Positions 34,039-63,052 of a stretch of 64,000 bases of DNA are shown here, piece by piece. Position numbers and translations under genes: made by a program. The DNA comes from Candidatus Micrarchaeota archaeon. Lineage in GTDB: Archaea; Micrarchaeota; Micrarchaeia; Anstonellales; Bilamarchaeaceae. The stretch covers positions 12,403 through 76,402 of the forward strand of contig CAZBAM010000002.1 in the NCBI GenBank assembly GCA_964490215.1, given 5' to 3'. How positions within the stretch are numbered: position 1 is the stretch's first letter; each line of letters begins with the position of its first letter. The notes under the pieces were generated by a model. The model did not search any database and was not told the DNA's origin. It saw nothing but the letters and a program-made list of their open reading frames with translations.

Positions 34039-35718
34039 ATGGACGGCGACGAGGACATGGTGGATGAGGTCTCGGTCCATTCCACCGAGGTCGCAAGGGG
34101 CAGCTTCTGGAGCCTTTTCGGCGGCATGTTCTACAAGTTCATCTCATTCATTTACGTGGTACTCATAGCCAGGATGGCGTCCCAGAACGACGTGGGACTC
34201 TTTTACCTCTCGCTGGCCGTGGTGACCACGTTCATAGTGGTCAGCGACCTGGGCCTGCCCGCCTCGCTCATCAGGTACGCGCCATATTTTGAAGGGAAGG
34301 GTGAGCACGGGAAAGTGCGCGCGCTGCTGAAGTACGCGTACCTGGTCGTCAGCCTCCTGAGCGTCCTGTTCTTGGCTGCCATATGGCTGTGCGCGGACAC
34401 CATAGGCTCAATGTACCAGAACCCGCTGCTGCCCGCAGCCCTGCGCGTGGTTTCCCTGTTCCTGCTGCTGAACAACATCTTCAGGATAAACTATTCCTTC
34501 CTCAACGGCCTCAGCGACATAAAGCAGATGCAGTTCCTCCTGAACATGGACAACCTGCTGAAGTTCCTGCTCACGCTGGTCTTCTTCCTGTTCCTGGGCG
34601 CCTCTTTCATCACAATCGCCGTGCCGTTCCTGCTGGCCCACCTGCTGGTCGTGCTGATGGGCTTCGTGCTCGTCTCCAGGAAGGAGCGCACCCTGCCTTC
34701 AGGCCAGGACAGCCTGCCCTCGTTCTCATTCGTGCTGAAGGAGGTCGTTCCCTTCGGCCTGATGCTCACGGCCATATACTCGTTCAACATGGTCCTGGCC
34801 TCGTCCGACCGCATCCTGCTCGGCTACCTGGCACCGCCCTCGCAGGCAACCCAGCTCGTCGCAGTCTATTCAATATCCACGACGCTGGCCACTGTGCTCA
34901 TCATGCTGCCAGGTGCGATAGGCGCCATATTCCTCCCGGTGATGTCCCGGCTCGCTGGCAGGGAAGAGCTCGGGCAGATGCGCTCCACCATGGGCACAGC
35001 CCAGCGCTGGCTCCTGTTCATCATCCTTCCGGCAACGGCCGTCATGGTCTCCCTGCCGTCCGAACTGCTGGGCATTTTCTACGGCGAGGCATACCAGGTG
35101 GGATGGCTTGCAATGGCGATATTCACCCTCGGGATAATGATGAACGGCTTCGCCTACCTGATTTCCATGGCCCTGGCGGCCCTGAGGCAGGTCGGGCTGG
35201 AACTCAGGATATCCGCAGTCTCAGCACTGGCCAACATCGCCTTCTGCATCCTGCTCATCCCAGGGTTCGGCATGGCCGGCGCGGCCGCTGCGTCATTCCT
35301 CAGCTTCACCCTGCTCGCGCTCCTCTACCGCCACTACGGCCGGCGCCTTTACGGTTTTGCGTTCCCGCCGGAGACGCCCAGGCTGATGGTGGCCGCGGTG
35401 GCCGCATTCGCCGCCATGGTCCTGCTCAAGGGGGCCGCGTTCTCCCTGCTGGGCGCGTTCTGGCAGCCTTCCAGCGCCCAGTTCTCCATCGCCGACAAGG
35501 CAGTCTACCTTTCGTTCCTGGCCCTTCTGGCAGCGTTCGTGGCAGGCGTTTTCCTCCTCCTGGCGCTCCTGCTGAAATGCCTCAGGCGCGAGGACGTGTC
35601 GCTGCTGGAGAAAATCCTGCGCCGCGCCATGGTCCCCCAGCCCCTGGCGGCGCTGGCGCTCCGCTTCGCTTCCTATGGCACCGCCGTGCCGGAGCATGCC
35701 CCGCCCGCCCGCAAATAG
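34039..35718 (+). CDS. Wzx-like oligosaccharide flippase (MOP superfamily, polysaccharide biosynthesis protein)
   Basis: About 14 predicted TM segments; N-terminal region typical of Polysacc_synt family proteins. Confidence 0.55.
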   Translation: MDGDEDMVDEVSVHSTEVARGSFWSLFGGMFYKFISFIYVVLIARMASQNDVGLFYLSLAVVTTFIVVSDLGLPASLIRYAPYFEGKGEHGKVRALLKYAYLVVSLLSVLFLAAIWLCADTIGSMYQNPLLPAALRVVSLFLLLNNIFRINYSFLNGLSDIKQMQFLLNMDNLLKFLLTLVFFLFLGASFITIAVPFLLAHLLVVLMGFVLVSRKERTLPSGQDSLPSFSFVLKEVVPFGLMLTAIYSFNMVLASSDRILLGYLAPPSQATQLVAVYSISTTLATVLIMLPGAIGAIFLPVMSRLAGREELGQMRSTMGTAQRWLLFIILPATAVMVSLPSELLGIFYGEAYQVGWLAMAIFTLGIMMNGFAYLISMALAALRQVGLELRISAVSALANIAFCILLIPGFGMAGAAAASFLSFTLLALLYRHYGRRLYGFAFPPETPRLMVAAVAAFAAMVLLKGAAFSLLGAFWQPSSAQFSIADKAVYLSFLALLAAFVAGVFLLLALLLKCLRREDVSLLEKILRRAMVPQPLAALALRFASYGTAVPEHAPPARK

Positions 35719-38658: not shown

Positions 38659-39375
38659 ATGTACGGTGTTTCTCCCCAGGCATATGACAGAGCGATTACG
38701 GTATTCAGCCCTGACGGCAGGCTTTTCCAGGTGGAATACGCCAAGGAGGCGGTCAAGCGCGGTGCGACAGCCGTCGGCATAACCGCCAAGGACGGCGTGG
38801 CCCTGGTTGCGTTCAAGTCCATCCACACGAAGCTCGTCGTCCCGGAATCGCTCAAGAAGGTGTTCCAGGTTGATTCTCACATCTGCGTCACGGCCAGCGG
38901 CCTCATCGCGGACGCGCGCAGGCTGGTGGACGTGGCGAGGGTGGACGCCCAGCGCCACCGCATCACCTACAACGAGATGCCGACCGTGGAGTCCATAGCC
39001 CGCAGCGTGTGCGACCTGATGCAGGTCTATACGCAATACGGCGGAATCCGGCCGTTCGGCGTGTCGCTGCTCATCGCCGGCGTGGACGCGCAGGGCCCGA
39101 AGCTGTTTGAGGCAGAGCCCAGCGGCGCCATGACAGCCTACAAGGCCGATTCAATCGGCGCGAACAAGAAGGAAGTGGACGACATCCTGGAGAAGAGCTA
39201 CAAGGACACGCTCACCGTGGAAGAGGCGATAAAAATCGCGCTTGAGGCGATCCGCACCACGCAGGAGGAGAAGCTCCAGGCTGAGAACGTGGAGATATCC
39301 TACATCCCGATAAAGCCCAAGAAGGCGCTGACGCTTTCGGACAAGGAAGTCGCGAAATACCTGAAGGGCGCGTGA
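38659..39375 (+). CDS. psmA: Proteasome subunit alpha
   Basis: MYGVSPQAYDRAITVFSPDGRLFQVEYAKEAVKRG, canonical alpha-subunit N-terminus. ORF 38650 starts at GTG; ATG at 38659 with gaggtg SD-like motif and tttataaata TATA upstream. Confidence 0.8.
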   Translation: MYGVSPQAYDRAITVFSPDGRLFQVEYAKEAVKRGATAVGITAKDGVALVAFKSIHTKLVVPESLKKVFQVDSHICVTASGLIADARRLVDVARVDAQRHRITYNEMPTVESIARSVCDLMQVYTQYGGIRPFGVSLLIAGVDAQGPKLFEAEPSGAMTAYKADSIGANKKEVDDILEKSYKDTLTVEEAIKIALEAIRTTQEEKLQAENVEISYIPIKPKKALTLSDKEVAKYLKGA

Positions 39376-39377
39376 AT
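39345..39377 (+). repeat. 33-bp direct repeat copy 1 (3' end of psmA including stop codon)
   Basis: ggaagtcgcgaaatacctgaagggcgcgtgaat; second copy at 40733..40765 with 1 mismatch. Confidence 0.7.
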
Positions 39378-39443
39378 CCTTTCGTTTCCTGTTTTGGCGT
39401 TGCCAGGCTTGGTTTTGTGTCTATATGCCCCTACAAGGGCATA

Positions 39444-39473: not shown

Positions 39474-40703
39474 ATGGCAATCCCGACCAAGAACGAAATA
39501 ATGGATTTCTCGCCGATAAACAAAGGTGGAATCGAGAACGTCCCGGAATACCGGCGAACTGCATTCAGGGAAATAGGCACGGCGCTGGATACCGGATTCA
39601 TAGTTGCGATAACCGGCCTGCGCAGGGTCGGAAAGACCACCCTGATAAAGCAGACGCTGGGAAAGAATTCATTCTATTTCTCCTTTGACGAAAAAAGATA
39701 CGCCAATCCTGACGCGCTCAGGCAGGTGATTGAAACATTCGTGAAAGAGGGCGAAAGGCCCCTCATCGCCCTGGACGAGGTGTTCAGGGTCGGGGACTGG
39801 TCCGGTTTGATAAAGCGGTACCACGACCAGAAACTGGCGCGTTTCATAGTGAGCGGATCCTCGGCGCTGGGAGTAAAGAAGGGGGTTGAAAGCCTGGCCG
39901 GAAGGATGGTGGAGAGGTACATCCAGCCTCTCAGGTTTGAAGAATACCTGGAACTTGGGGGCGAAAAGCCCGAAAGGCCTGGGCTTGCGGACCTGTTCAG
40001 GAAAGCAAAGCGGCATGAAGCCGGGTTGGAGTCGTTCCTCAGGCGCGGCTCGTTCCCTGAACTGGCCGGAAGGAAGGAAATTGATGCAACGGAGTACATA
40101 CGGACCAGTACGGTGGAAAAAATCGTATTTGACGACATACCCTCTATTTTTAAGATAGAGAATCCTTCCAAGCTGTACGACCTGTTCCGGCTGTGTGCTA
40201 CGAATTCCTCACGGCTTTTCACAGAGGTTAATCTCGCCGAGGCGCTCCAGATGGGCAGGCACGCGGTTTCGGATTACCTCCTTTATCTCCGAAAGGCGTA
40301 CCTCCTGGACGTCGTCTATCCCCAGGGGTCTCTCCAGAAGGCGCTCAAGAAGCAGAAGAAGGTCTTCGCAAAGACGGCGAGCATCTATAACGCGATTGCC
40401 GAGAACCCGAATGCCGGCCAGGCTGCCGAAACTGCGGTTTTTGACAAGCTTTCCGGTTCCGGGCCGTCATTCTACAGGGACGCGCAGAAAAGGGAGGTTG
40501 ATTTCATCTCCTCCGTCCCCATAGAAGTGAAATTCCAGTCCATCGTCCTGCGCAGTGATATAGAGAACCTCATTTATTATGCGAAAAGGCGGAAGGCAGG
40601 GAAAGCCATAGTCGTGACCGAAAACCTTTTTGATGAGAAAGATTACGACGGAGTGACCGTTACCTTCATCCCCCTGGACGTTTTCCTGCTGTTGAAGTTG
40701 TAA
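39474..40703 (+). CDS. AAA-domain ATPase with C-terminal DUF4143 (archaeal ATPase family)
   Basis: Walker A ITGLRRVGKTTL; Walker B LIALDEV; C-terminal DUF4143-like region. Confidence 0.6.
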   Translation: MAIPTKNEIMDFSPINKGGIENVPEYRRTAFREIGTALDTGFIVAITGLRRVGKTTLIKQTLGKNSFYFSFDEKRYANPDALRQVIETFVKEGERPLIALDEVFRVGDWSGLIKRYHDQKLARFIVSGSSALGVKKGVESLAGRMVERYIQPLRFEEYLELGGEKPERPGLADLFRKAKRHEAGLESFLRRGSFPELAGRKEIDATEYIRTSTVEKIVFDDIPSIFKIENPSKLYDLFRLCATNSSRLFTEVNLAEALQMGRHAVSDYLLYLRKAYLLDVVYPQGSLQKALKKQKKVFAKTASIYNAIAENPNAGQAAETAVFDKLSGSGPSFYRDAQKREVDFISSVPIEVKFQSIVLRSDIENLIYYAKRRKAGKAIVVTENLFDEKDYDGVTVTFIPLDVFLLLKL

Positions 40704-40732: not shown

Positions 40733-40765
40733 GGAAGTCGCGAAATACCTGAAGGGCTCGTGAAT
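40733..40765 (+). repeat. 33-bp direct repeat copy 2 (displaced psmA 3'-end remnant, encodes ...EVAKYLKGS*) followed by a T-rich terminator-like tract
   Basis: ggaagtcgcgaaatacctgaagggctcgtgaat then tttcgctttcactcttttctgacttttttt. Confidence 0.7.
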
Positions 40766-40811
40766 TTTCGCTTTCACTCTTTTCTGACTTTTTTTGTAGA
40801 TTGACGAAAGC

Positions 40812-41492: not shown

Positions 41493-41538
41493 GGTATGAT
41501 TGCCCTGCTGATTTTAAAAAGCATGGGCACACGCGGCG

Positions 41539-41675
41539 CTGTAGAAAAGCTCATGCGCCTTGCCGGGCTAGTCTTATCCTAGCCTCTGGACGCCCTTTGG
41601 GCACGGGACCCACCATCCCTTCGGGATGGTTCCCCCGTGCCTGTTCATGGAGGCATTTCTTATGGGATTTCTACA
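41539..41675 (+). repeat. Structured MITE-like repeat, copy A (about 137 nt; terminal inverted repeats CTGTAGAAA...TTTCTACAA; internal UUCG-capped hairpin)
   Basis: About 93% identical to the reverse complement of 49632..49828 apart from a 55-nt indel and a 10-nt patch. Confidence 0.55.
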
Positions 41676-41711
41676 AAGCCGGCACGTGCCACCGCTTTTC
41701 GGCCGCCAGGC

Positions 41712-49582: not shown

Positions 49583-49612
49583 TTTTCTTTTTTCCCTTTT
49601 ATGTTCTTGTTC
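49583..49612 (+). terminator. Oligo-T archaeal terminator after glnA
   Basis: tgattttcttttttcccttttatgttcttg immediately after the stop. Confidence 0.45.
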
Positions 49613-49631
49613 CCCTCGTCCAGTGCCCGGT

Positions 49632-49828
49632 CTTTGCAGAAATCCCACAAGAAATGCCTCCATGAACCGGCACGGGGGAACCATCCCGAAGGGATGGTGG
49701 GTCCGGCAGAACGGCGCACCGTTCTGTGGACCAGTGAATGACGCCTCATTCACCCGGTCCCGTGCCCAAAGGGCGTCCTTACATCCTGAATAAGACTAGC
49801 CCGGCACGGCGCATGAGTTTTTCTACAG
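49632..49828 (-). repeat. Structured MITE-like repeat, copy B (about 197 nt; same family as 41539..41675 in inverted orientation, with an extra two-hairpin 55-nt module)
   Basis: Reverse complement aligns end-to-end with copy A; terminal inverted repeats TTGCAGAAAT...TTTCTACAG. Confidence 0.55.
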
Positions 49829-49876
49829 AGCCGCGCCCACAAAGCCATAAAAACCGGCGTCAGTTAAATATCCTCA

Positions 49877-50050
49877 GGGCCCATAGTCGAGTTCCGCCTT
49901 TTGGAAAAAGCGTTGCCGCAATCTCGCGGCAACATTTGACGCTCAAAGCGTCAAAGGCGGCCCAAAACTTATTGTTTAGGGCATGACGACAATGGTTAAG
50001 ACGTCGCTCTTACACAGCGAAGATCCCCAGTTCGATCCTGGGTGGGCCCA
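49877..50050 (+). tRNA. tRNA-Val (anticodon UAC) interrupted by an approximately 100-nt intron/insertion in the D-loop (between positions 17 and 18; 5' exon 49877..49893, 3' exon 49994..50050)
   Basis: 5' exon GGGCCCAUAGUCGAGUU (acceptor, U8, A14, G15). 3' exon GGUUAAGACGUCGCUCUUACACAGCGAAGAUCCCCAGUUCGAUCCUGGGUGGGCCCA: anticodon stem-loop with UAC, 5-nt variable loop, T-arm CCCAG-UUCGAUC-CUGGG, perfectly complementary 7-bp acceptor, discriminator A. The intervening 100 nt contains two perfect hairpins closed by CCGCC/GGCGG. Confidence 0.5.
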
Positions 50051-50335
50051 TTATTTTCTCCTGAGCACAGTCAGCGCCGCAATCCCTGCAAGGAGGGCAG
50101 TCGGGCCGCAGCACGACGACCCGCTTGACACGCCGAACGCGTTTTCAATGCAGCCTACGGAGCACTGGTCGTATTCGTCCGAGCTGCCACCCAGGCAGTC
50201 GCCGCCGCTGGTCCACTGGCCCCCGCTGCCGGTGCAGCAGCTCTCCAGGCAGCTTTGCAGCTGCGCTTCCTGGGCGCTCATGGCGAACCCGCTTCCGGCA
50301 AGCATCAGTCCGAACAACAATAATGCGTATTTCAT
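50051..50335 (-). CDS. Small secreted Cys-rich protein (8 Cys) with signal peptide and C-terminal CCGP–TM–RRK anchor (CGP-CTERM-like sorting signal)
   Basis: MKYALLLFGLMLAGSGFAMS... then ...SSCCGPTALLAGIAALTVLRRK at the C-terminus. Confidence 0.45.
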   Translation of the reverse strand: MKYALLLFGLMLAGSGFAMSAQEAQLQSCLESCCTGSGGQWTSGGDCLGGSSDEYDQCSVGCIENAFGVSSGSSCCGPTALLAGIAALTVLRRK

Positions 50336-50407
50336 GCAGGACTAACCAGAAAAAGCATTATCAACCTATCTGGCCGGTCAGCAGGCCGTCTGAGCCCCCT
50401 GCATCAG

Positions 50408-50689
50408 TCATTTCCTGAATGCAGCGAACGCGGCGATGCCCGCGAGCAGCAAGCCCGGCCCGCAGCATCCCATGTTGGATGTGATGCAGCTCATGGCGCA
50501 GGTGCCGTAACTCTCGGAGTTGGGGTTTTCGCTGTCTATGCTGCATTCGTTATCCCCGCTGTCCCAGGTGCCTCCGTTGCCTGTGCAGCAGGACTTGGCG
50601 CACTGTATCATCGCCTCGCCGTTCCCGCTTGAAGCCGCGAAAGCAGCGCCCAAAACCAGCAATCCGAATAAAATGGCTGCGTATCTCAT
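50408..50689 (-). CDS. Paralogous small secreted Cys-rich protein (8 Cys) with C-terminal CCGP–TM–RK anchor
   Basis: MRYAAILFGLLVLGAAFAAS... then ...GCCGPGLLLAGIAAFAAFRK; shares a C-x3-SCCTG-x-GG-W-SG-D-C core with its neighbour. Confidence 0.45.
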   Translation of the reverse strand: MRYAAILFGLLVLGAAFAASSGNGEAMIQCAKSCCTGNGGTWDSGDNECSIDSENPNSESYGTCAMSCITSNMGCCGPGLLLAGIAAFAAFRK

Positions 50690-50732
50690 GAAAAATTAAG
50701 TCCCGCAACCCTTTTAAGCGTGGTTGGTCCGC

Positions 50733-51293
50733 TCAGCGCGGCCAGGCAGACAGGGGCGGCTTGGTGAAAAGGTAATATTTCTCGTGGCCCTGCAGCTCGC
50801 TGAGTATGCGGTGGGCGAACACGCCTACCGGGTCGGTGAGTGTCGGCACGCGCTTGTGCAGATCTGCAAAGGTGTCAAAAGGCTTCGTTTCCCTTTCATG
50901 GATGATGGCCTCCATGGTCTTCTTCCCTATCCCCGGGAGCAGGTCCAGGGTGTGCACCCTGATGGAGATGGGCCTCGCGTTGTTTATGAACGCCACGAAT
51001 TCTCCTTCCCTCTCCTCCACCGCCTTCTTGAGCATGCTTGGCAGGAACTCCCTGGCCCCGTTCGTGAGGTCGTCGTAGCCTATCCTGCCCTTTATGTGGA
51101 CTATCTCCGTCCGGCCTTCCTTGCCGACGTTGACCTTCTGGCTGAGCATTATGCTGGACGCTGGGGTGACCGTGGCTTCAAGCAGGGTGAAGAACCTGGT
51201 GCCCAGAAGCTGGACTGCCGGCTCCTTCCTGAGCGCCGCGGCATGCCCTGACGGCATGTATTCAATTACCCATGCGAAGTCTTCCATAGCCAT
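50733..51293 (-). CDS. DUF655-family protein (archaeal RNA-binding-like protein commonly encoded next to rpoF)
   Basis: MAMEDFAWVIEYMPSGH..., typical DUF655 start; HhH-like C-terminus. Confidence 0.55.
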   Translation of the reverse strand: MAMEDFAWVIEYMPSGHAAALRKEPAVQLLGTRFFTLLEATVTPASSIMLSQKVNVGKEGRTEIVHIKGRIGYDDLTNGAREFLPSMLKKAVEEREGEFVAFINNARPISIRVHTLDLLPGIGKKTMEAIIHERETKPFDTFADLHKRVPTLTDPVGVFAHRILSELQGHEKYYLFTKPPLSAWPR

Positions 51294-51300
51294 CGCCCTC

Positions 51301-51615
51301 TCACGCGAGTTCCTTTATTATCTCGTTTATGTCCTCTTCGCTGAGCTCCACCTTGTCCTTGGACAGGATGGCCCTTACGGTGGCTGGATTGTCCGGCCGT
51401 ATGTCAATTAGCTTGACTGTGAGTTCCTCGCTGATTTTGCCCTTGGGCATCTTTTCCTTCAGCGCCCTGGCATCTTTCGGGTCCGCCTTGGCGGTTATCT
51501 CAAGGTTCTCCAGGGCCTGCGCCTGCTCGTACCCCAGCTCGCCGCCTTCCTTCCTGGCGGCCAGTATGGTCCGGGCTTCGGATGCGTTCACTGCCTTGGA
51601 TGATCTGGTTTCCAT
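51301..51615 (-). CDS. rpoF: DNA-directed RNA polymerase subunit F (Rpb4-like)
   Basis: Small acidic helical protein ...ISEELTVKLIDIRPDNPATVRAIL...EEDINEIIKELA; conserved context with DUF655 and L21e. Confidence 0.55.
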   Translation of the reverse strand: METRSSKAVNASEARTILAARKEGGELGYEQAQALENLEITAKADPKDARALKEKMPKGKISEELTVKLIDIRPDNPATVRAILSKDKVELSEEDINEIIKELA

Positions 51616-51619
51616 TAAA

Positions 51620-51907
51620 TCACGCTCCGAGTGCGAGGTGGATTGGGCTGACGATTAGCTTCTTGGTCTTTTTATAGTCCCTGACCGCGACCACGTAGCT
51701 CTTGCCCCTCTTTTCCACCACAATGCCGTGCCGGTTGGAATACCTTAAGTGCGGCAGGCCTATCCATTTGGCCTTCGGCCTGACCACTACCTTGTCACCG
51801 ACGTTGAACGTCCTGACGTATTCTGCCACGGTTACCGTGCTCTTGCCCTTGAGCCTGCGCGTAAGCCTGTTGAAAGACCCTTTTGAAGCTCTGACCATAT
51901 GGACCAC
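51620..51907 (-). CDS. rpl21e: 50S ribosomal protein L21e
   Basis: ...FNVGDKVVVRPKAKWIGLPHLRYSNRHGIVVEKRGKSYVV..., the L21e core. Confidence 0.7.
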   Translation of the reverse strand: MVHMVRASKGSFNRLTRRLKGKSTVTVAEYVRTFNVGDKVVVRPKAKWIGLPHLRYSNRHGIVVEKRGKSYVVAVRDYKKTKKLIVSPIHLALGA

Positions 51908-51971
51908 TAAGCATTAGTTCTCTAACGACGGTTTGTTATGAGATAGTCTTTTTAAATAGTAGTCCCCGTTG

Positions 51972-51995
51972 TATATATAAAGCCTTTAAATAAAA
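51972..51995 (+). promoter_or_regulatory. TATA/BRE-like elements of the divergent rpl21e / tbp promoter region
   Basis: tatatataaagcctttaaataaaa upstream of tbp; reverse-strand ctatttaaaaag upstream of rpl21e; aggtgg SD-like motif 5 nt before the tbp TTG start. Confidence 0.4.
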
Positions 51996-52004
51996 GGTGG
52001 TCTT

Positions 52005-52571
52005 TTGTCTAAAAAACCGGATTTTGTAATCACCAACATGGTGGCATCAGCCTCTCTCGGCCTTGAGTTGGACCTCTACGCGCTGGCCAGCAAGATAAAG
52101 GAGATAGAATACGAGCCGGAGCAGTTCCCCGGCGCCATACTCAAGTTCAAGGAGCCCAAGGCATCGCTCCTGCTCTTCAAGAACGGCAAGGTGGTCTGCG
52201 TCGGCTGCAAGCAGCGCATTCTCATAGAGAGGACGATAGACAAGACCATAAAGATGCTCACGCCATACGCCAAGAGGATAAACAGCACCAAGAAGCCCAA
52301 GATAGACATAACCAACATCGTGGCATCGGCCAATCTGGGGCTTGAGCTTGACCTCTACAAGATAGCCTCCAAGCTCAAGGACGTGGAATACGAGCCGGAG
52401 CAGTTCCCCGGCGCCATACTCAAGTTCAAGGAGCCAAAGGCCTCCCTGCTGCTTTTCAAGAACGGCAAGGTCATCTGCGCCGGTGCCAAGAACGAGAAGG
52501 AGATAAGGATAGTGCTGGACAAGGCCAAGAGGCTGCTCAGGCCGTATGCCGAGAAGGCAAGGCAGGGGTAG
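52005..52571 (+). CDS. tbp: TATA-box-binding protein
   Basis: Two tandem TBP repeats (ITNMVASASLGLELDLY... and ITNIVASANLGLELDLY...); apparent TTG start at 52005 preceded by an SD-like motif (first ATG at 52038). Confidence 0.8.
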   Translation: MSKKPDFVITNMVASASLGLELDLYALASKIKEIEYEPEQFPGAILKFKEPKASLLLFKNGKVVCVGCKQRILIERTIDKTIKMLTPYAKRINSTKKPKIDITNIVASANLGLELDLYKIASKLKDVEYEPEQFPGAILKFKEPKASLLLFKNGKVICAGAKNEKEIRIVLDKAKRLLRPYAEKARQG

Positions 52572-54418: not shown

Positions 54419-55789
54419 CTAAGGGCCGTAGCAGCGGACGACTACTGATATGTCCGCGGTCACCGGGATGTTCCTGTTGGGGTTGTTTATTATGAGATAG
54501 ACGGAATCCTTCGTGTCCCTGTACACGTCACCCGCCCCGCCCAGCACACCCTTGCCGCCGTAGCTGTAGCTGAACGCCGCCCCGTCCTTGTAGTCCTGAT
54601 AGCCCTCGCGGTCGGTCACGAACCAGTCCATGGACCCTGACTCGGAACGCAGCGTCACGTTGTACATGCAGAACTTGTGGACGCTGTCCCACAGGCCTGA
54701 CATCTCGCGGTAGTGCGTCCAGCCCGGGTTGATTATCTTGGTCTCCTGCACCAGCGTCCACGGGCCGTATTCCACGCGGGCTGTCTCTGGCGGGGTTGGC
54801 TCCTCGGCAGGGCCGCTGCAGGGGTCTATCTCAAACGTCTGCGTGCCGTTCAGGCACCCCTCTATGGTGTCGCCCGGGTAGTACGCGCCCGCTGTGTCTG
54901 CCAGCACCCAATACACGGTCTCGTTGTTCTCGGTGTGGTGGTAGAAGTGCAGGGTGGCGTTGGAAGCGTCCTCGTAGTGGGACCGCACGGCCTTGAAGAA
55001 CACGTCCTTGTTGCTCTCGTTCCCCAGATAGACCAGCGGGAACGCGTGGCTGCAGTCCGGCACGATGAGCACCTTGGCGCTGCCCCCTATCGCCTCTATC
55101 ATGGAGGCGACGAGGACCGCCTGGTTCTTGCAGTCCCCGGACTTCGTCTGCAGCGTCTCGTTCGGCGGGTAGGGCATGCTCATGTCCAGCGGGACGTTCT
55201 GGTAGAATACGTTCCTGTTCACCCAGTCATAGACGTCCATTATCTGGTTGACCGAGAAGGCCCCAGGATGCCCGGATATGGCCTGGGCCGCCGCGCTCCT
55301 GACCGCCAGGTCCACTGGCGTGAACCGTTCGCAGTATTGCACGTAGGTGTCGCACGGCTCGCTCGCGTTGTTGGTGTTGCACACGTAATATCCGGGTTCG
55401 TCCAGCCGCTGCGGTGCCGGGCAGTCCGCGGCCGCATACACCATCGTGCCGTCAGGGCATTCCACCATCGGCGGGCAGTCGCCCGCGCTCGCGGCCACGG
55501 TGCCGTCCGCGCACACGTACTCGTCGCTGTCGCACATGTCGTTGGCGTTCGCGTCCAGGCAGCAGACGCTGCCGCTCTTTATGTAAGGCGCGTCGCAGGT
55601 CGTGGGGTTGATGATGTCGCAGCAGCCTGCCAGCACCATGAACGCGCACGCGAGCGCGAAAACGATCGTTCGCACGGAACCATCATCAACGTAATGGAAT
55701 AAAATCCCCCCGCTCCTCACTCCGCCCCGTTCCCCTGCCAGTTCCCCCTGCGTTTCCTCTGCGGCCCACTTGTTCGGCGCTCCGAACAA
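54419..55789 (-). CDS. Secreted/membrane-anchored transglutaminase-like cysteine protease domain protein with an N-terminal Cys-rich region
   Basis: Transglutaminase core SGDCKNQAVLVASMIEAIG with downstream H (CSHAFP) and D; N-terminal TM/signal plus many Cys. Confidence 0.55.
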   Translation of the reverse strand: MFGAPNKWAAEETQGELAGERGGVRSGGILFHYVDDGSVRTIVFALACAFMVLAGCCDIINPTTCDAPYIKSGSVCCLDANANDMCDSDEYVCADGTVAASAGDCPPMVECPDGTMVYAAADCPAPQRLDEPGYYVCNTNNASEPCDTYVQYCERFTPVDLAVRSAAAQAISGHPGAFSVNQIMDVYDWVNRNVFYQNVPLDMSMPYPPNETLQTKSGDCKNQAVLVASMIEAIGGSAKVLIVPDCSHAFPLVYLGNESNKDVFFKAVRSHYEDASNATLHFYHHTENNETVYWVLADTAGAYYPGDTIEGCLNGTQTFEIDPCSGPAEEPTPPETARVEYGPWTLVQETKIINPGWTHYREMSGLWDSVHKFCMYNVTLRSESGSMDWFVTDREGYQDYKDGAAFSYSYGGKGVLGGAGDVYRDTKDSVYLIINNPNRNIPVTADISVVVRCYGP

Positions 55790-55871
55790 GGGGCCCAGGG
55801 AACGAAGCGTCGTTCCCTGCGGAAATGAGCCGGAAAAACCCGCTTAAATACCACCCCCGCAAATCTTCCCC

Positions 55872-59593: not shown

Positions 59594-62500
59594 TCAGAAG
59601 TCGGTCATCTTCATTTGGCCTTCCTTCGGCTTGGGTTTTGCGGTCTTTTTCAGCTCGTCGGCGACGACGAACGAATCGTCATGCCTCCTCGCCCTGCCGG
59701 CCATCGTGTCTGCAGGAACGAAGGCCTGCGCCCTGCCCCCTGCAATCTCGCCTGCCCGCTTCATGCCGTGCAGTATGCTCTTCATCCTCTTCTCGCGGTT
59801 CTGGGACGCGTAATGGTAGTACTCGTCCCTCGTCCCCTTCGTCATCAGCACGATTACCTCGCCTTCCTTGAGGCGGGCGGCGCGCCCTCTCCGCTGGATG
59901 GTGCGTATCTCGCTGGGAACAGGCTCGTAGAATATGACCGCATCAACCGCAGGTATGTCCAGGCCTTCCTCGCCGATGCTTGACGCGACCATGGCGTCAA
60001 ACTTCCCTGCGCGGAACTCCGCGATGGTCTCCTCCTGCATCTTCCTGGTCACGCCCTCCTTCTTGCCCACGAAACGTTTCGCGCTTATGCCGTTCGCCCT
60101 CAGCACGTCCTCAATGCGCGCTATCTGCGAGCGGTACTGGACGAAGACTATCATCTTCTTCCCTGCGCCGGAGAGCCTCTTCACGGTCTCCACCAGCACC
60201 TTCATCTTGGGGTGGTCCTCGTCCTTCAGGCACAGCTCCTTCACCTTCGCCATCCCGGGCTCGTTCAGGAGCAGTTTCGCTGACTTGCCCTCCTTCGCCT
60301 CCAGCTTCGCTATGTATTCCCGCAGCGGGTAGATGCCCTGGGTCTCAAGCAGTTCGGTCATGTGGAGCAGGTGGAGCAGGGCGTAATACTGCACGAGCGC
60401 AGGGAATTTGATGTTGTGGGGGATGTTGCGTATGCGCTCGCCGAGCGCGAGGAAATTGCCCTTGTGCCTCAGCGGGGGCGGGAATCCCATGCCCGCGAGC
60501 CGCTGCGCGTGTTTTCCGGTGAGCGCGTCCAGTTCGGACTTGAGAGCCCGGAAATGGCCGGACAGGTCCACAGGCACCCAGGTTATCGTGCTTTTCTGCA
60601 CGTACGGCGAGACGTCCGCGTCGTCCTGGCCGCGTATCTCCACATTGGTTATTTTCAGGTTATTCAATACGTCATTTATTCTCTCTCTCCTGCCTCCAGG
60701 TGAGGCGGTGAGGCCCAAGATTAATGTGGTTTGCGGAAGTTTTTCTGCTATGTAAGTGTAAGCATAATCCTTAACCGCCCGATGAGCTTCATCAAATACG
60801 CATAACGAAAAATTCTCCAGGCTGATGCGATTGTTCTGAAGATCATTTTTTATGGTCTGCGGAGTGGAAAAAATCACATCGGCCTGATCATACAGTTCGT
60901 GTCTTTTCTCCGGAGCAACCTCCCCGGTGCATAGAACGAGATTAATGTCGTTTCTGATGAACTGCCTGAATGTTCCCAGGTGTTGTGAAGAAAGCGGTTT
61001 GGTAGGTGCGAGAATGAGGATTTTCTTATCGGGATGGCGGTCCAGACTATGAGCTACAATCAGAGCTGCGATTGAGGTATTATGCGAAATGAGAGCGCCA
61101 TAATCCCCAGCGATGAAATTTCCATTTTCCGTGCATATGTCATAAACCCACTGCGGTTTTTTTACATGAGAAATACTTTTTATTTTATCAAAAGCTATGT
61201 TTGCCTGAAGCAGCTGTTTAAGCATGTCTATTTTTCCGAATGAGCTGGCAGCGCATTTCCATTTTCTGTCCATATAGTCGATAAGCGATAAAAGTTTCTG
61301 CGGGTTTACTGTCGCGGGATTCACCCCCGCCCTTCTCAATTCAAAATTCGTGATCCTCATGGCTGTTATGATTCTCCCTATTCTACCCTGTAGTTCGGTT
61401 CGTTTATCAAGGCGCTTTATCCTACCAGCTGCATAAAGTAAGCGAATATAAGGTGACCCATCTTTGATTTTTGGGAAATATCTGCCCCCGCTCCATGCTT
61501 TGTACTGCTTACCGATAATTTCCGTATCTCTCAAAAAGCTTCTCGTGCCCCTCCCTGTCTTGAGTTGCCCCTTTATATCCAAAATCTCCCTGAAAACGTT
61601 TAGCGCATCCACATCCCGACTAATAGATTGTAATTCCGCCCTTCTTTCTTCCAAAACAGATACGATATACGCCAGCATGTTCCGCGAGGGATTCCGTATG
61701 CCCCTTTCATAGATTCCGAAATCAGACAATTGATTAAAGTCCTTTCCCTTCGAGGTCACAAGGCCCATGCTTTTTCTTATTTCCCCCAGTATTTTGCCGA
61801 CTGGAAGCACATCCACGTTCGTGTTGGCTATTTTTGCCGACTTTGTTATCCTAGCCAGCCGTTCCTTTCTTTCCGGTTGTTTAAAACCTATGTAATCTTC
61901 AAACAATTTGAGGTTTTCTTTGCCCTCAATGTTGATCCGGTAATACGTCCTTTCTTTTGGGTTTGGAGAATTTGTCGCTTTGGATTTTTTTGGTCTGACT
62001 CTGCATACGATGCCAAATCTTAACAAAAGATACGGCAATGCCTGCGCCATTCTTTTGCTTGCAGTCATAAATTCGATGAGCCCATCTTTCCGTACCGAAC
62101 CATCGCCGTCATATAAGCCACAAATAAAAGCGGAGACCACCCCGGCCGGTGCCCTCATTATCGCTTTTGGTACTATCTTGTCTCTTGAATGACAATTAGT
62201 TATGCCGAATGCGGATCTTAGAAAGTAAATAAGGGCAGTTGAACTGACATGTAAACCCCCATCTATTTTTGTGGTTTCCAGGCCAAAAAGGGTTCTTGAA
62301 AGAATTTCGAAATCTTTTAGGATGACCTCGTCTTCATTGTAAAAGTTTATGCCACCATCGAGACGGGCTTCCGCTGTTATCAGACCCAAAAATCGGGCCA
62401 ATTCAGGGGTCAACTCGTCAACTGGCTTCACTACGTCCTTCGAACTTCTGCCTCCTACGCAATAAACCCCCAGAACCTTTCCGTCATACCCGCTTACAAA

Positions 62501-63052
62501 TCTCTTTCCCGGTACGCTCTCAAATACTTTGCAAAAGTCTATTCTGGTTTCATGTGCCGCAGGGCTGATTTTGTTTGGGATGGCCACCCAGTCCTTCAAT
62601 TTCAATTCAGCAGCGCTGACCCATGAAAAATCTTTATCAAAACCAAGAATGAGGTGTTCCGGGGTTACCCGAACCGATATGCCCGCCTCTGTTTCTACTT
62701 CGATGATCTCATCGGCTTTGAATTTACAAAATGCTATGACCTCCGTTGCTTTAATACCATGCTCTGTGAATGAGACGACCCGCAAATCCCGTGATTGATT
62801 GAGCGTGATGGACCCATTATGCATCTGAAAGCCCGGTGAACTTGCCAGTGCTTTTTCAACAAGTTCGCCCATGTACTCCGTCTGGCCGTTTTCCAGAAGT
62901 ATTAAGTCTTCAAAACCATGACATTTTCCCAAACCCGTTGGGAGGACGACTAGTGTATTTTTATCCATTGCAGATCTTGCTATCGCTTCCTGATAATCTC
63001 GTCTCTCGATTACGTTCGGATTAATTAGTGAATGGCTGACGTATTCCTTCAT
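59594..63052 (-). CDS. hef: Hef/FANCM-type SF2 helicase (helicase-only, no ERCC4 nuclease domain) interrupted by a 615-aa intein in the P-loop
   Basis: RRDYQ; LPTGLGK|C...intein...HN|TSIAAL; DEAH (VFDEAHRA); motif VI QRRGRAAR. Extein about 537 aa. Confidence 0.7.
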   Translation of the reverse strand: MKEYVSHSLINPNVIERRDYQEAIARSAMDKNTLVVLPTGLGKCHGFEDLILLENGQTEYMGELVEKALASSPGFQMHNGSITLNQSRDLRVVSFTEHGIKATEVIAFCKFKADEIIEVETEAGISVRVTPEHLILGFDKDFSWVSAAELKLKDWVAIPNKISPAAHETRIDFCKVFESVPGKRFVSGYDGKVLGVYCVGGRSSKDVVKPVDELTPELARFLGLITAEARLDGGINFYNEDEVILKDFEILSRTLFGLETTKIDGGLHVSSTALIYFLRSAFGITNCHSRDKIVPKAIMRAPAGVVSAFICGLYDGDGSVRKDGLIEFMTASKRMAQALPYLLLRFGIVCRVRPKKSKATNSPNPKERTYYRINIEGKENLKLFEDYIGFKQPERKERLARITKSAKIANTNVDVLPVGKILGEIRKSMGLVTSKGKDFNQLSDFGIYERGIRNPSRNMLAYIVSVLEERRAELQSISRDVDALNVFREILDIKGQLKTGRGTRSFLRDTEIIGKQYKAWSGGRYFPKIKDGSPYIRLLYAAGRIKRLDKRTELQGRIGRIITAMRITNFELRRAGVNPATVNPQKLLSLIDYMDRKWKCAASSFGKIDMLKQLLQANIAFDKIKSISHVKKPQWVYDICTENGNFIAGDYGALISHNTSIAALIVAHSLDRHPDKKILILAPTKPLSSQHLGTFRQFIRNDINLVLCTGEVAPEKRHELYDQADVIFSTPQTIKNDLQNNRISLENFSLCVFDEAHRAVKDYAYTYIAEKLPQTTLILGLTASPGGRRERINDVLNNLKITNVEIRGQDDADVSPYVQKSTITWVPVDLSGHFRALKSELDALTGKHAQRLAGMGFPPPLRHKGNFLALGERIRNIPHNIKFPALVQYYALLHLLHMTELLETQGIYPLREYIAKLEAKEGKSAKLLLNEPGMAKVKELCLKDEDHPKMKVLVETVKRLSGAGKKMIVFVQYRSQIARIEDVLRANGISAKRFVGKKEGVTRKMQEETIAEFRAGKFDAMVASSIGEEGLDIPAVDAVIFYEPVPSEIRTIQRRGRAARLKEGEVIVLMTKGTRDEYYHYASQNREKRMKSILHGMKRAGEIAGGRAQAFVPADTMAGRARRHDDSFVVADELKKTAKPKPKEGQMKMTDF
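61079..62923 (-). mobile_element. Intein (615 aa) with LAGLIDADG homing-endonuclease domain, inserted between K43 and T659 of the Hef Walker A motif
   Basis: N-terminal splice residue Cys (GLGK/CHGFEDLILLENG); C-terminal block VYDICTENGNFIAGDYGALISHN/T; LAGLIDADG-like FLGLITAEARLDGG and ICGLYDGDGSV. Confidence 0.7.

Follow-up and report, generated by a model that had tools for sequence, protein, structure and literature searches.

Introduction

Several archaea are known in which tRNA genes are disrupted at noncanonical positions. In ARMAN-2 (Candidatus Micrarchaeum acidiphilum; Micrarchaeota), 56% of the tRNA genes are disrupted, and the epsilon2 splicing endonuclease cuts relaxed motifs in vitro, as reported in the main text of Fujishima et al. 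(2011, PMC3239211); a structure of this enzyme is available (PMC12397907). EndA of Aeropyrum pernix removes the D-loop intron of pre-tRNA-Thr in vitro without other factors (2011, PMC3241643), and the pre-tRNA-Glu(UUC) of Methanopyrus kandleri has an HBh' D-loop intron at position 20b/21 (Kaneta et al. 2018, PMC5829648). In addition, incomplete tRNA sets in DPANN archaea point to disrupted genes that have gone undetected (PMC5829648). Here, we describe such a locus in a 64-kb stretch (64,000 nucleotides [nt]) of contig CAZBAM010000002.1, which is referred to below as the window. Comparison with orthologous loci indicates that positions 49877 to 50050 (+ strand) are very probably a tRNA-Val(UAC) gene that is split in the D-loop by an intron of the protein-spliced type, and splicing of its transcript is predicted.

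Results

The two exons of the candidate gene, both on the + strand, were delimited at 49877 to 49891 and 49993 to 50050. The 5' exon (tRNA positions 1 to 15; GGGCCCAUAGUCGAG) contains the acceptor 5' strand, U8, A9, the D-stem 5' strand (G10 to G13), A14, and G15, and it is identical to positions 1 to 15 of the uninterrupted tRNA-Val of locus L018. The 3' exon (positions 16 to 73; UGGUUAAGAC...GGGCCCA) carries the anticodon UAC at 50011 to 50013 and does not encode CCA. As the initial annotation had proposed, the 5' end at 49877 is complementary to the acceptor 3' strand (seven of seven pairs with UGGGCCC at 50043 to 50049, with A73 at 50050), and the downstream portion was read as an anticodon arm (UCGCU/CUUACAC/AGCGA), a 5-nt variable loop (AGAUC), and a T arm (CCCAG/UUCGAUC/CUGGG). 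The exons (15 and 58 nt) are separated by an intron of 101 nt (49892 to 49992), removal of which yields a 73-nt sequence that is base-for-base the uninterrupted L018 gene (1908 to 1980 of that locus; Ca. Iainarchaeum STA_81). This 73-nt sequence, as it stands in L018, scored 68.5 bits on the Rfam tRNA model. The 174-nt stretch as a whole folds at −71.9 kcal/mol (z = −5.3 relative to shuffled sequences), with the acceptor stem closing the fold.

Putative transcription signals flank the gene. A TATA-box-like element (CCATAAAAAC; 49845 to 49854, + strand) is centred ∼27 nt upstream of G1 and is a predicted promoter. An A-rich box (AAATAAAAAC or GTTAAAAA) is found at equal spacing upstream of the orthologues in L036, L039, L007, L008, L035, and L018, within flanks that are otherwise unalignable. 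A T-rich stretch (TTATTTTCT; 50051 to 50059, + strand) directly follows A73 and is a likely archaeal terminator; the orthologues have T-rich trailers too.

Standard tRNA finding did not recover the split gene. ARAGORN reported no tRNA in the whole 64 kb and called tRNA-Val(tac) once the insert was removed. The same program called all four uninterrupted genes at the orthologous loci and none of the 13 intron-bearing ones. No further tRNA was found in the window by an Rfam E-value scan of all 64 kb, and no other tRNA-Val was found in the syntenic regions.

Orthologues were collected by exact-pattern scans of genomes and metagenomes. In the genome scan, each species was represented by a single genome, and a degenerate pattern for the 3' exon gave 31 loci. 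The loci fetched for comparison are numbered L001 to L042, and coordinates given for them are specific to each locus. The gene order GS-tRNA-Val-DUF655-TBP (GS, glutamine synthetase) ties the orthologous loci to the window, and in L036, L007, and L008 the flanking sequence is syntenic with it (77 to 84% nucleotide identity). In 13 distinct orthologues of the tRNA-Val(UAC) gene, an intron of 36 to 101 nt occupies exactly the site found in the window, and four further orthologues (L018, L001, L016, and L029) have none. Genes with and without the intron differ by the precise insert alone.

The structure of the junctions was then compared among these genes. In the window, exon and intron are joined by a 4-bp central helix (H), whose 5' strand is GUCG of the D stem (tRNA G10 to G13; 49886 to 49889) and whose 3' strand is CGAC at 49987 to 49990. 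In every interrupted orthologue, this 3' strand consists of the four intron bases just before the last two. The 5' splice site lies in the bulge AG|U (49890 to 49892), with a predicted cut after G15 (49891), and the bulge is closed by an inner helix (h') in which UC (49893 to 49894) pairs with GA (49985 to 49986), so that the 3' strands of h' and H together occupy 49985 to 49990. The 3' splice site lies in the trinucleotide AA|U (49991 to 49993), with a predicted cut after 49992, and no outer helix closes this side. All of these elements are on the + strand. The initial annotation had taken a CCGCC/GGCGG stem within the intron as the key structure; the central helix uses the D-stem 5' strand and the last intron bases instead. 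[quoted passage not shown] A 4-bp exon-intron helix that places two cleavage sites in symmetric 3-nt bulges, as in BHB-type junctions, was present; the full hBHBh' form, in which both bulges are closed by helices of at least 2 bp, was not. By its predicted structure, the junction is a relaxed BHB of the HBh' subclass, the substrate type of broad-specificity archaeal splicing endonucleases.

To compare this pairing across loci, we used a junction-anchored alignment of 11 distinct junction sequences that was built without fitting to any structure. H was 90.9% paired, and opposite the invariant exon strand the only pair changes were G-C/G-U and U-A/U-G. Its 3' strand reads CGAC, CGAU, CGGC, or UGAU (four of four pairs) or GGAC, AGAC, or CAAU (three of four). 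The first pair of h' covaries on both sides (U-A in three sequences, C-G in two, G-C in two, A-U in one, G-U in one, and unpaired in two; 9 of 11 paired); for example, the U-A of the window is C-G in L039. The length of h' ranges from 0 to 11 bp in the orthologues and is 2 bp in the window. The whole junction structure was 95.1% paired, compared with 32 to 46% when the partners were slid. Each of the 13 intron-bearing orthologues has AG|U or AG|A as its 5' trinucleotide and AA|U, GA|U, or UA|U as its 3' trinucleotide. Forcing H in the window cost 0 kcal (−71.9 kcal/mol both ways), and H was present in the unconstrained minimum free energy folds of L007, L008, and L022.

These observations suggest how the transcript would be processed. 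In the precursor, GUCG (G10 to G13) would pair with the intron sequence CGAC rather than with its mature partner, forming a 4-bp helix with the AG|U bulge closed by UC/GA on one side and with AA|U opening into the unpaired D-loop on the other. Cleavage by an archaeal splicing endonuclease able to act on relaxed motifs, such as epsilon2, (alpha-beta)2, or loop-bearing alpha4, would follow the second nucleotide of each trinucleotide (after G15 at 49891 and after A49992), and GAG and UGG would be joined by a ligase of the RtcB type. Refolding of the D stem (G10-C25, U11-A24, C12-G23, and G13.A22) would then give a 73-nt cloverleaf, to which CCA would be added. We infer transcription, the cleavage positions, the enzymes, and ligation; the directly supported part of this model comprises exon integrity, the identity of the product to an uninterrupted orthologue, the conserved site, and the conservation or covariation of H and h'.

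Several features weigh against splicing at this junction. The outer helix is absent in all orthologues, since A9 and U8 cannot pair with G18 and G19, and the motif is relaxed as a consequence. In the window, h' has 2 bp only, and its formation is in competition with that of the first base pair in intron hairpin 1. A scan for the relaxed motif (H of 4 bp plus a 2-bp flanking helix) gave 46 chance occurrences in the 174 nt, so the structure is no proof by itself, and the argument depends on the comparison among loci. In that comparison, 4 of the 11 distinct junction sequences have a mismatch in H, and H shows one-sided changes only because its exon strand is invariant. Finally, no gene for a splicing endonuclease (tRNA_int_endo) or RtcB was found among the open reading frames (ORFs) scanned across the 64 kb.

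An alternative is that the locus is a tRNA-Val pseudogene, broken by an insertion in the D-loop and never spliced. A pseudogene would fit the lack of a strict BHB, the failure of ARAGORN and the default Rfam scan to recognise the split gene, and the further insertion that has struck the intron itself. However, the exons are 100% identical to those of a functional-looking uninterrupted orthologue, although the adjacent GS gene shows only 48 to 55% identity at four-fold degenerate sites between the window and L036, L039, L007, and L008. Moreover, 13 distinct genomes have the interruption at one and the same nucleotide, the junction pairing is conserved and covaries, the promoter-like box is conserved, and the syntenic regions hold no other tRNA-Val. 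We consider a pseudogene improbable. The initial annotation's reading of a tRNA-Val(UAC) gene with an intron at a noncanonical D-loop position was thus borne out by same-site orthologues with and without the intron, together with the conserved junction, the intact exons, and the promoter-like box.

The precise position of the intron was less well served by that annotation, which had placed ∼100 nt between U17 and G18 to give a 74-nt product. ARAGORN calls the 74-nt product tRNA-Val too, and a D-loop of AGUUGGUUAA is common in archaea. However, all four uninterrupted orthologues read GTCGAG-TGGTTAAG, that is, GAGUGG with a single U. In the intron-bearing genes of L007, L008, and L014, G15 is followed by A, not U; U16 must therefore derive from the 3' side, which places the junction at 15/16 (...GUCGAG|UGGUUAAG...). 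Symmetric cutting after the second bulge nucleotide, the rule by which the intron boundaries were set here, also leads to 15/16. If both boundaries are moved by +1, the product is the same, since U flanks both junctions. The 17/18 placement is very unlikely on this evidence, and the intron is best described as 101 nt at G15|U16 with a 73-nt product.

A third possibility is that the real gene is contiguous and that the upstream GGGCCCAUAGUCGAG is either a remnant or matches by chance. The default Rfam scan did report a contiguous 72-nt tRNA at 49979 to 50050 with 36.8 bits, above the gathering score of 29. In this match, however, three of the seven acceptor pairs are non-Watson-Crick (one mismatch and two G-U wobbles) and the D stem is broken; cmscan marks two nonstandard pairs, and ARAGORN rejects it. 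The sequence equivalent to the spliced product, at 68.5 bits, scored far higher, and the test for a better fold with other boundaries, which the initial annotation had called for, favoured the split gene. In addition, the bases that correspond to the alternative 5' half are unrelated in other intron families (e.g., L007, L026, and L034), and no alternative 5' half exists there; the tRNA likeness in the window arises because CGAC must pair with GUCG. A contiguous gene is hardly credible. The same holds for a self-splicing (group I or II) intron or a carrier of a guide RNA such as a box C/D small RNA (sRNA), which the unusual length for a BHB-type intron and the conservation well past splicing needs (55 of 55 bases relative to L036) would favour, since no Rfam family besides tRNA meaningfully matched 49700 to 50250 even at an E value of ≤10, a group I/II core (above about 200 nt) would not fit into 101 nt, and the intron has no pair of C box (RUGAUGA) and D box (CUGA), only AUGACGA, one mismatch from a C box, and no CUGA.

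The introns themselves were compared under the preferred reading of a spliced D-loop intron at 15/16. Those of the 13 orthologues fall into five families that are mutually without sequence similarity. Beside hairpin 1 (below), the intron of the window contains hairpin 2 (CCCAAAAC-UUAUU-GUUUAGGG, with one A.A mismatch; 49961 to 49981, + strand), which is kept in families A and B. Relative to L036, which shares the family A intron of the window, 73 of 73 exon bases and 55 of 55 intron bases are identical when a 46-nt insertion in the window is set aside, while four-fold sites of GS are 48% identical (synonymous sites are saturated). At the protein level, GS of L036 is 90 to 91% identical to that of L007 and L008 and 86% identical to that of the window; L007 and L008 nevertheless carry an unrelated intron at the same site. 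Thus, family A has changed as slowly as an exon in certain lineages, and in a different one it has been swapped out entirely. The pattern is indicative either of selection that acts on the sequence of the intron or of tRNA allele exchange. That the ancestral intron is conserved to the degree of an exon suggests that it may have a function of its own once excised.

Similar conservation was observed in family C, where L007 and L008, on the one hand, and L014, from a distant genome, on the other, share the hairpin CAUGGC-AAAA(A)CCCUG(G)AAAAA(A)-GCCAUG with a nearly identical loop of 15 to 16 nt. As in family A, the loop conservation suggests selection on the intron at the sequence level. An origin of the intron by duplication of the 5' exon was considered and rejected: GGGCAUGACGACAAU resembles GGGCCCAUAGUCGAGU, but the other intron families show no such likeness, and the resemblance follows from the palindromic nature of GUCGAC and the pairing requirement. 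Separately, tRNA-Val(UAC) genes from other DPANN and Asgard metagenome-assembled genomes, namely, L010 and L027 (Woesearchaeota-labelled), L019 (Pacearchaeota), and L021 (Promethearchaeota), have short introns at a different place in the D arm, around positions 21 to 26; examples are ...GGTTA|CGAAGGGAAAACGCCGCAAA|TGACG... in L010 and ...GGTTAAG|TTCTAAAG...|..GACG in L019.

Intron hairpin 1 (49894 to 49960, + strand; CCGCC at 49894 to 49898 and GGCGG at 49956 to 49960) is interrupted in the window. In relatives such as L036, it is a simple 9-bp hairpin, CCGCCUUUU-GGA-AAAAGGCGG. The interruption is a lineage-specific insertion of 46 nt (49911 to 49956, + strand) that comprises two tandem perfect hairpins (49912 to 49933 and 49935 to 49955) and is flanked by the direct repeat AAAG; its placement is ambiguous within 49907 to 49911. 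The insertion is absent from L036 and L039 and from the more distant L035, whose introns are otherwise identical or near-identical, and it is therefore derived. The two perfect hairpins that had been described inside the CCGCC/GGCGG stem are indeed present, but they are the later insertion and not an ancestral part of the intron. As a later event within hairpin 1, the insertion should leave splicing unaffected, since it is remote from both splice sites and, with AAAG duplicated, the basal stem can form again.

The origin of the 46-nt insertion was pursued by similarity searches and by structure. There was no second copy in the window with up to three mismatches allowed, blastn-short against the window and 41 loci (L042 not among them) returned only chance matches of 9 to 18 nt, and neither hairpin matched in IMG/VR. 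A nested intron was rejected: none of the five equivalent placements gave more than two of four H pairs plus flanking helices at its own borders. Derivation from a transposable element of the miniature inverted-repeat type (MITE) or an insertion sequence was also rejected, given the lack of terminal inverted repeats, the variable lengths of the direct repeats, and the lack of a second copy in the window, the 41 loci, and IMG/VR. No transposase was found in the window.

Double hairpins of this kind were found elsewhere in the window. Tandem pairs of perfect hairpins (stems of at least 7 bp) numbered four, compared with 0.1 expected; three are double-hairpin modules, and the fourth consists of one module adjoining a hairpin that belongs to a MITE-like repeat. 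This repeat is ∼150 nt long and occurs as R1 (41532 to 41682, − strand) and R2 (49627 to 49835, + strand), which are 88 to 95% identical. It has imperfect terminal inverted repeats of ∼23 nt (GGCACGTGCCGGCTTTGTAGAAA...) and folds into one long hairpin at about −68 kcal/mol. R2 ends ∼10 nt before the TATA-like box of the tRNA-Val gene, and no homologue of the repeat was found in the fetched loci. R2 contains a 51-nt insert that is absent from R1 (49705 to 49755), flanked by GGTCC (49700 to 49704 and 49756 to 49760) and located within the long hairpin of the repeat, on its 3' strand; the insert's two tandem perfect 8-bp hairpins are CAGAACGG-cgca-CCGTTCTG and GTGAATGA-cgcc-TCATTCAC. The third module (∼55762 to 55819), located upstream of the gene for the XPD-like helicase, is inserted relative to L036, is flanked by CTGCGG, and has the hairpins CTTGTTCGG-cgct-CCGAACAAG and CAGGGAACGA-agcg-TCGTTCCCTG. 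The three inserts of the window share no sequence with each other, and their direct repeats are AAAG (4 nt), GGTCC (5 nt), and CTGCGG (6 nt).

A further insert was seen among the orthologous loci. A ∼180-nt element beside tRNA-Val is present in two uninterrupted copies in L038 (at 629 to 676 and 2367 to 2414); the L038 repeat starts at the last bases of the tRNA (GCCCA) and resembles an att-like duplication. In L041, the same element is interrupted by a 60-nt double-hairpin insert (2856 to 2916). The first hairpin of this insert, CCCACTTGTTCG...CGAACAAGGGG, has the same stem as the third insert of the window, although the GS proteins of the two hosts are only 64% identical, and L038 carries the CCCACTTGTTCG...CGAACAAGGGG hairpin with a compensatory change of T:A to C:G (CTTGCTCG/CGAGCAAG).

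Four pairs of filled and empty sites are therefore available (the intron versus L036, L039, and L035; R2 versus R1; ∼55762 to 55819 versus L036; and L041 versus L038). The inserts landed in sequence that already formed hairpins, namely, a hairpin of a tRNA intron, the stem formed by a MITE-like repeat, and another double hairpin, and no transposase was seen in association with them. They could represent a mobile element that targets structure or a mutational process of template switching. We suggest, tentatively and with the odds rather against it, that they may form an undescribed class of inserts in DPANN genomes, 46 to 60 nt long, with tandem perfect hairpins of 8 to 10 bp and direct repeats of 4 to 6 nt.

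The genes that neighbour the tRNA in the window are archaeal (GS, phosphoglucomutase, DUF655, TBP, proteasome alpha, XPD, RFC, L21e, and Rpb4), and the closest matches to the window are metagenome-assembled genomes (MAGs) labelled Micrarchaeota or Ca. Iainarchaeum, both DPANN archaea. Judged by these matches, the host is a DPANN archaeon, Micrarchaeota/Iainarchaeota-like. The initial annotation had noted a likeness to methanogen tRNA-Val, but the nearest relatives are not methanogens. The tRNA-Val(UAC) genes of Methanoregulaceae and Methanospirillum fit the 3' pattern, yet they are uninterrupted and have another D arm and acceptor stem, and a methanogen origin was rejected. Exact-protein look-ups of GS, TBP, and XPD for independent assemblies gave no match. 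A look-up of DUF655 led to a Logan contig (ERR3804376) that is 100% identical to 50004 to 52136; it stops inside the 3' exon and covers none of the intron. The sample behind this contig contains the same strain.

The region between GS and tRNA-Val differs among loci. In L007 (2289 to 2868), it encodes an archaemetzincin-like protein (HELGHTFGLGHC motif), and the upstream sequences of L008, L018, and L029 indicate that a similar gene probably lies at the same place. No homologue was found in the window by tblastn, where 49583 to 49876 is a 295-nt spacer that holds the MITE-like copy only.

Other features of the window were recorded as well. A 51-nt direct repeat (82% identical; 39345 to 39395 and 40733 to 40783) brackets an AAA_14/DUF4143 ATPase gene (39474 to 40703), and the copy at 39345 to 39395 is the 3' end of the proteasome alpha gene; the arrangement resembles the outcome of a 1.39-kb gene having inserted with duplication of the target. 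On the − strand, 59594 to 63052 is a 1,152-amino-acid ORF for a DEAD/ResIII helicase with an intein and a LAGLIDADG homing-endonuclease domain (Pfam Intein_splicing and LAGLIDADG_3). Positions 1700 to 36000 contain a ∼34-kb cluster for surface glycans and nucleotide sugars, with genes for epimerases, NeuB, a DegT aminotransferase, glycosyltransferases, a heptosyltransferase-like GT9 protein, and a flippase. A subthreshold Rfam match to the archaeal box C/D sRNA sR28 in a polysaccharide-biosynthesis gene (34999 to 35049, − strand; 25.5 bits versus a gathering score of 39), the one further notable match of the 64-kb scan, is probably due to chance.

Discussion

The most immediate bearing of this locus is on annotation. 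Because ARAGORN misses the gene and the default Rfam reading of it is wrong, genomes of this DPANN clade would seem to be without tRNA-Val(UAC) or would be assigned a defective one, and inferences on genome completeness and codon usage would be affected. In the orthologue series, nature also offers clean data on how introns are gained, lost, and replaced and on the minimal needs of a relaxed motif: at one fixed site, there are intronless genes and five unrelated introns (36 to 101 nt) in which only the junction pairing is kept.

Among described systems, ARMAN-2 resembles the window in its host, which belongs to the same broad group (DPANN, Micrarchaeota-like), and in having introns at noncanonical positions with relaxed hBH or HBh' motifs that standard finders miss; the introns described in the main text of PMC3239211 differ in position, at 59/60 and 53/54 (T-loop) and at 37/38. 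A D-loop intron at 15/16 of tRNA-Val(UAC) is not described in that main text, supplementary tables aside. The A. pernix pre-tRNA-Thr likewise has a D-loop intron for which the endonuclease alone suffices, with removal slower than at 37/38 and a broad-specificity enzyme needed (PMC3241643). It differs in its full BHB, its crenarchaeal host, and its (alpha-beta)2 enzyme with a Crenarchaea-specific loop (PMC3241643). The pre-tRNA-Glu(UUC) of M. kandleri shares the relaxed HBh' motif in the D-loop; there, however, the intron is at 20b/21, is the second intron of that gene, and is short, and the host is euryarchaeal (PMC5829648). An HBh' D-loop intron is a further case of an already known kind and would not surprise a specialist.

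In length and conservation, the intron of the window can also be set beside that of Haloferax volcanii tRNA-Trp, which has 105 nt and carries a box C/D guide RNA. Both are long (∼100 nt) and conserved in sequence past the needs of splicing. The H. volcanii intron, in contrast, lies at the canonical 37/38 position, has a strict BHB, and contains C/D boxes, which the intron of the window does not.

The 46-nt insertion has its own parallels in the bacterial repetitive extragenic palindromic sequences and bacterial interspersed mosaic elements (REP/BIME) and in the GC clusters of yeast mitochondria, which, as outlined in PMC3733652 and PMC4478555, are likewise short and hairpin-forming, lie in noncoding or structured DNA, and have short target-like direct repeats. 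Those elements are conserved in sequence and present in many copies per genome (PMC3733652, PMC4478555, in outline), whereas the three inserts of the window share no sequence. What is unusual about the locus is limited to the double-hairpin insertion and the exon-like degree to which the intron is conserved, and only the conservation of one intron family and the small double-hairpin insertions may lead somewhere new.

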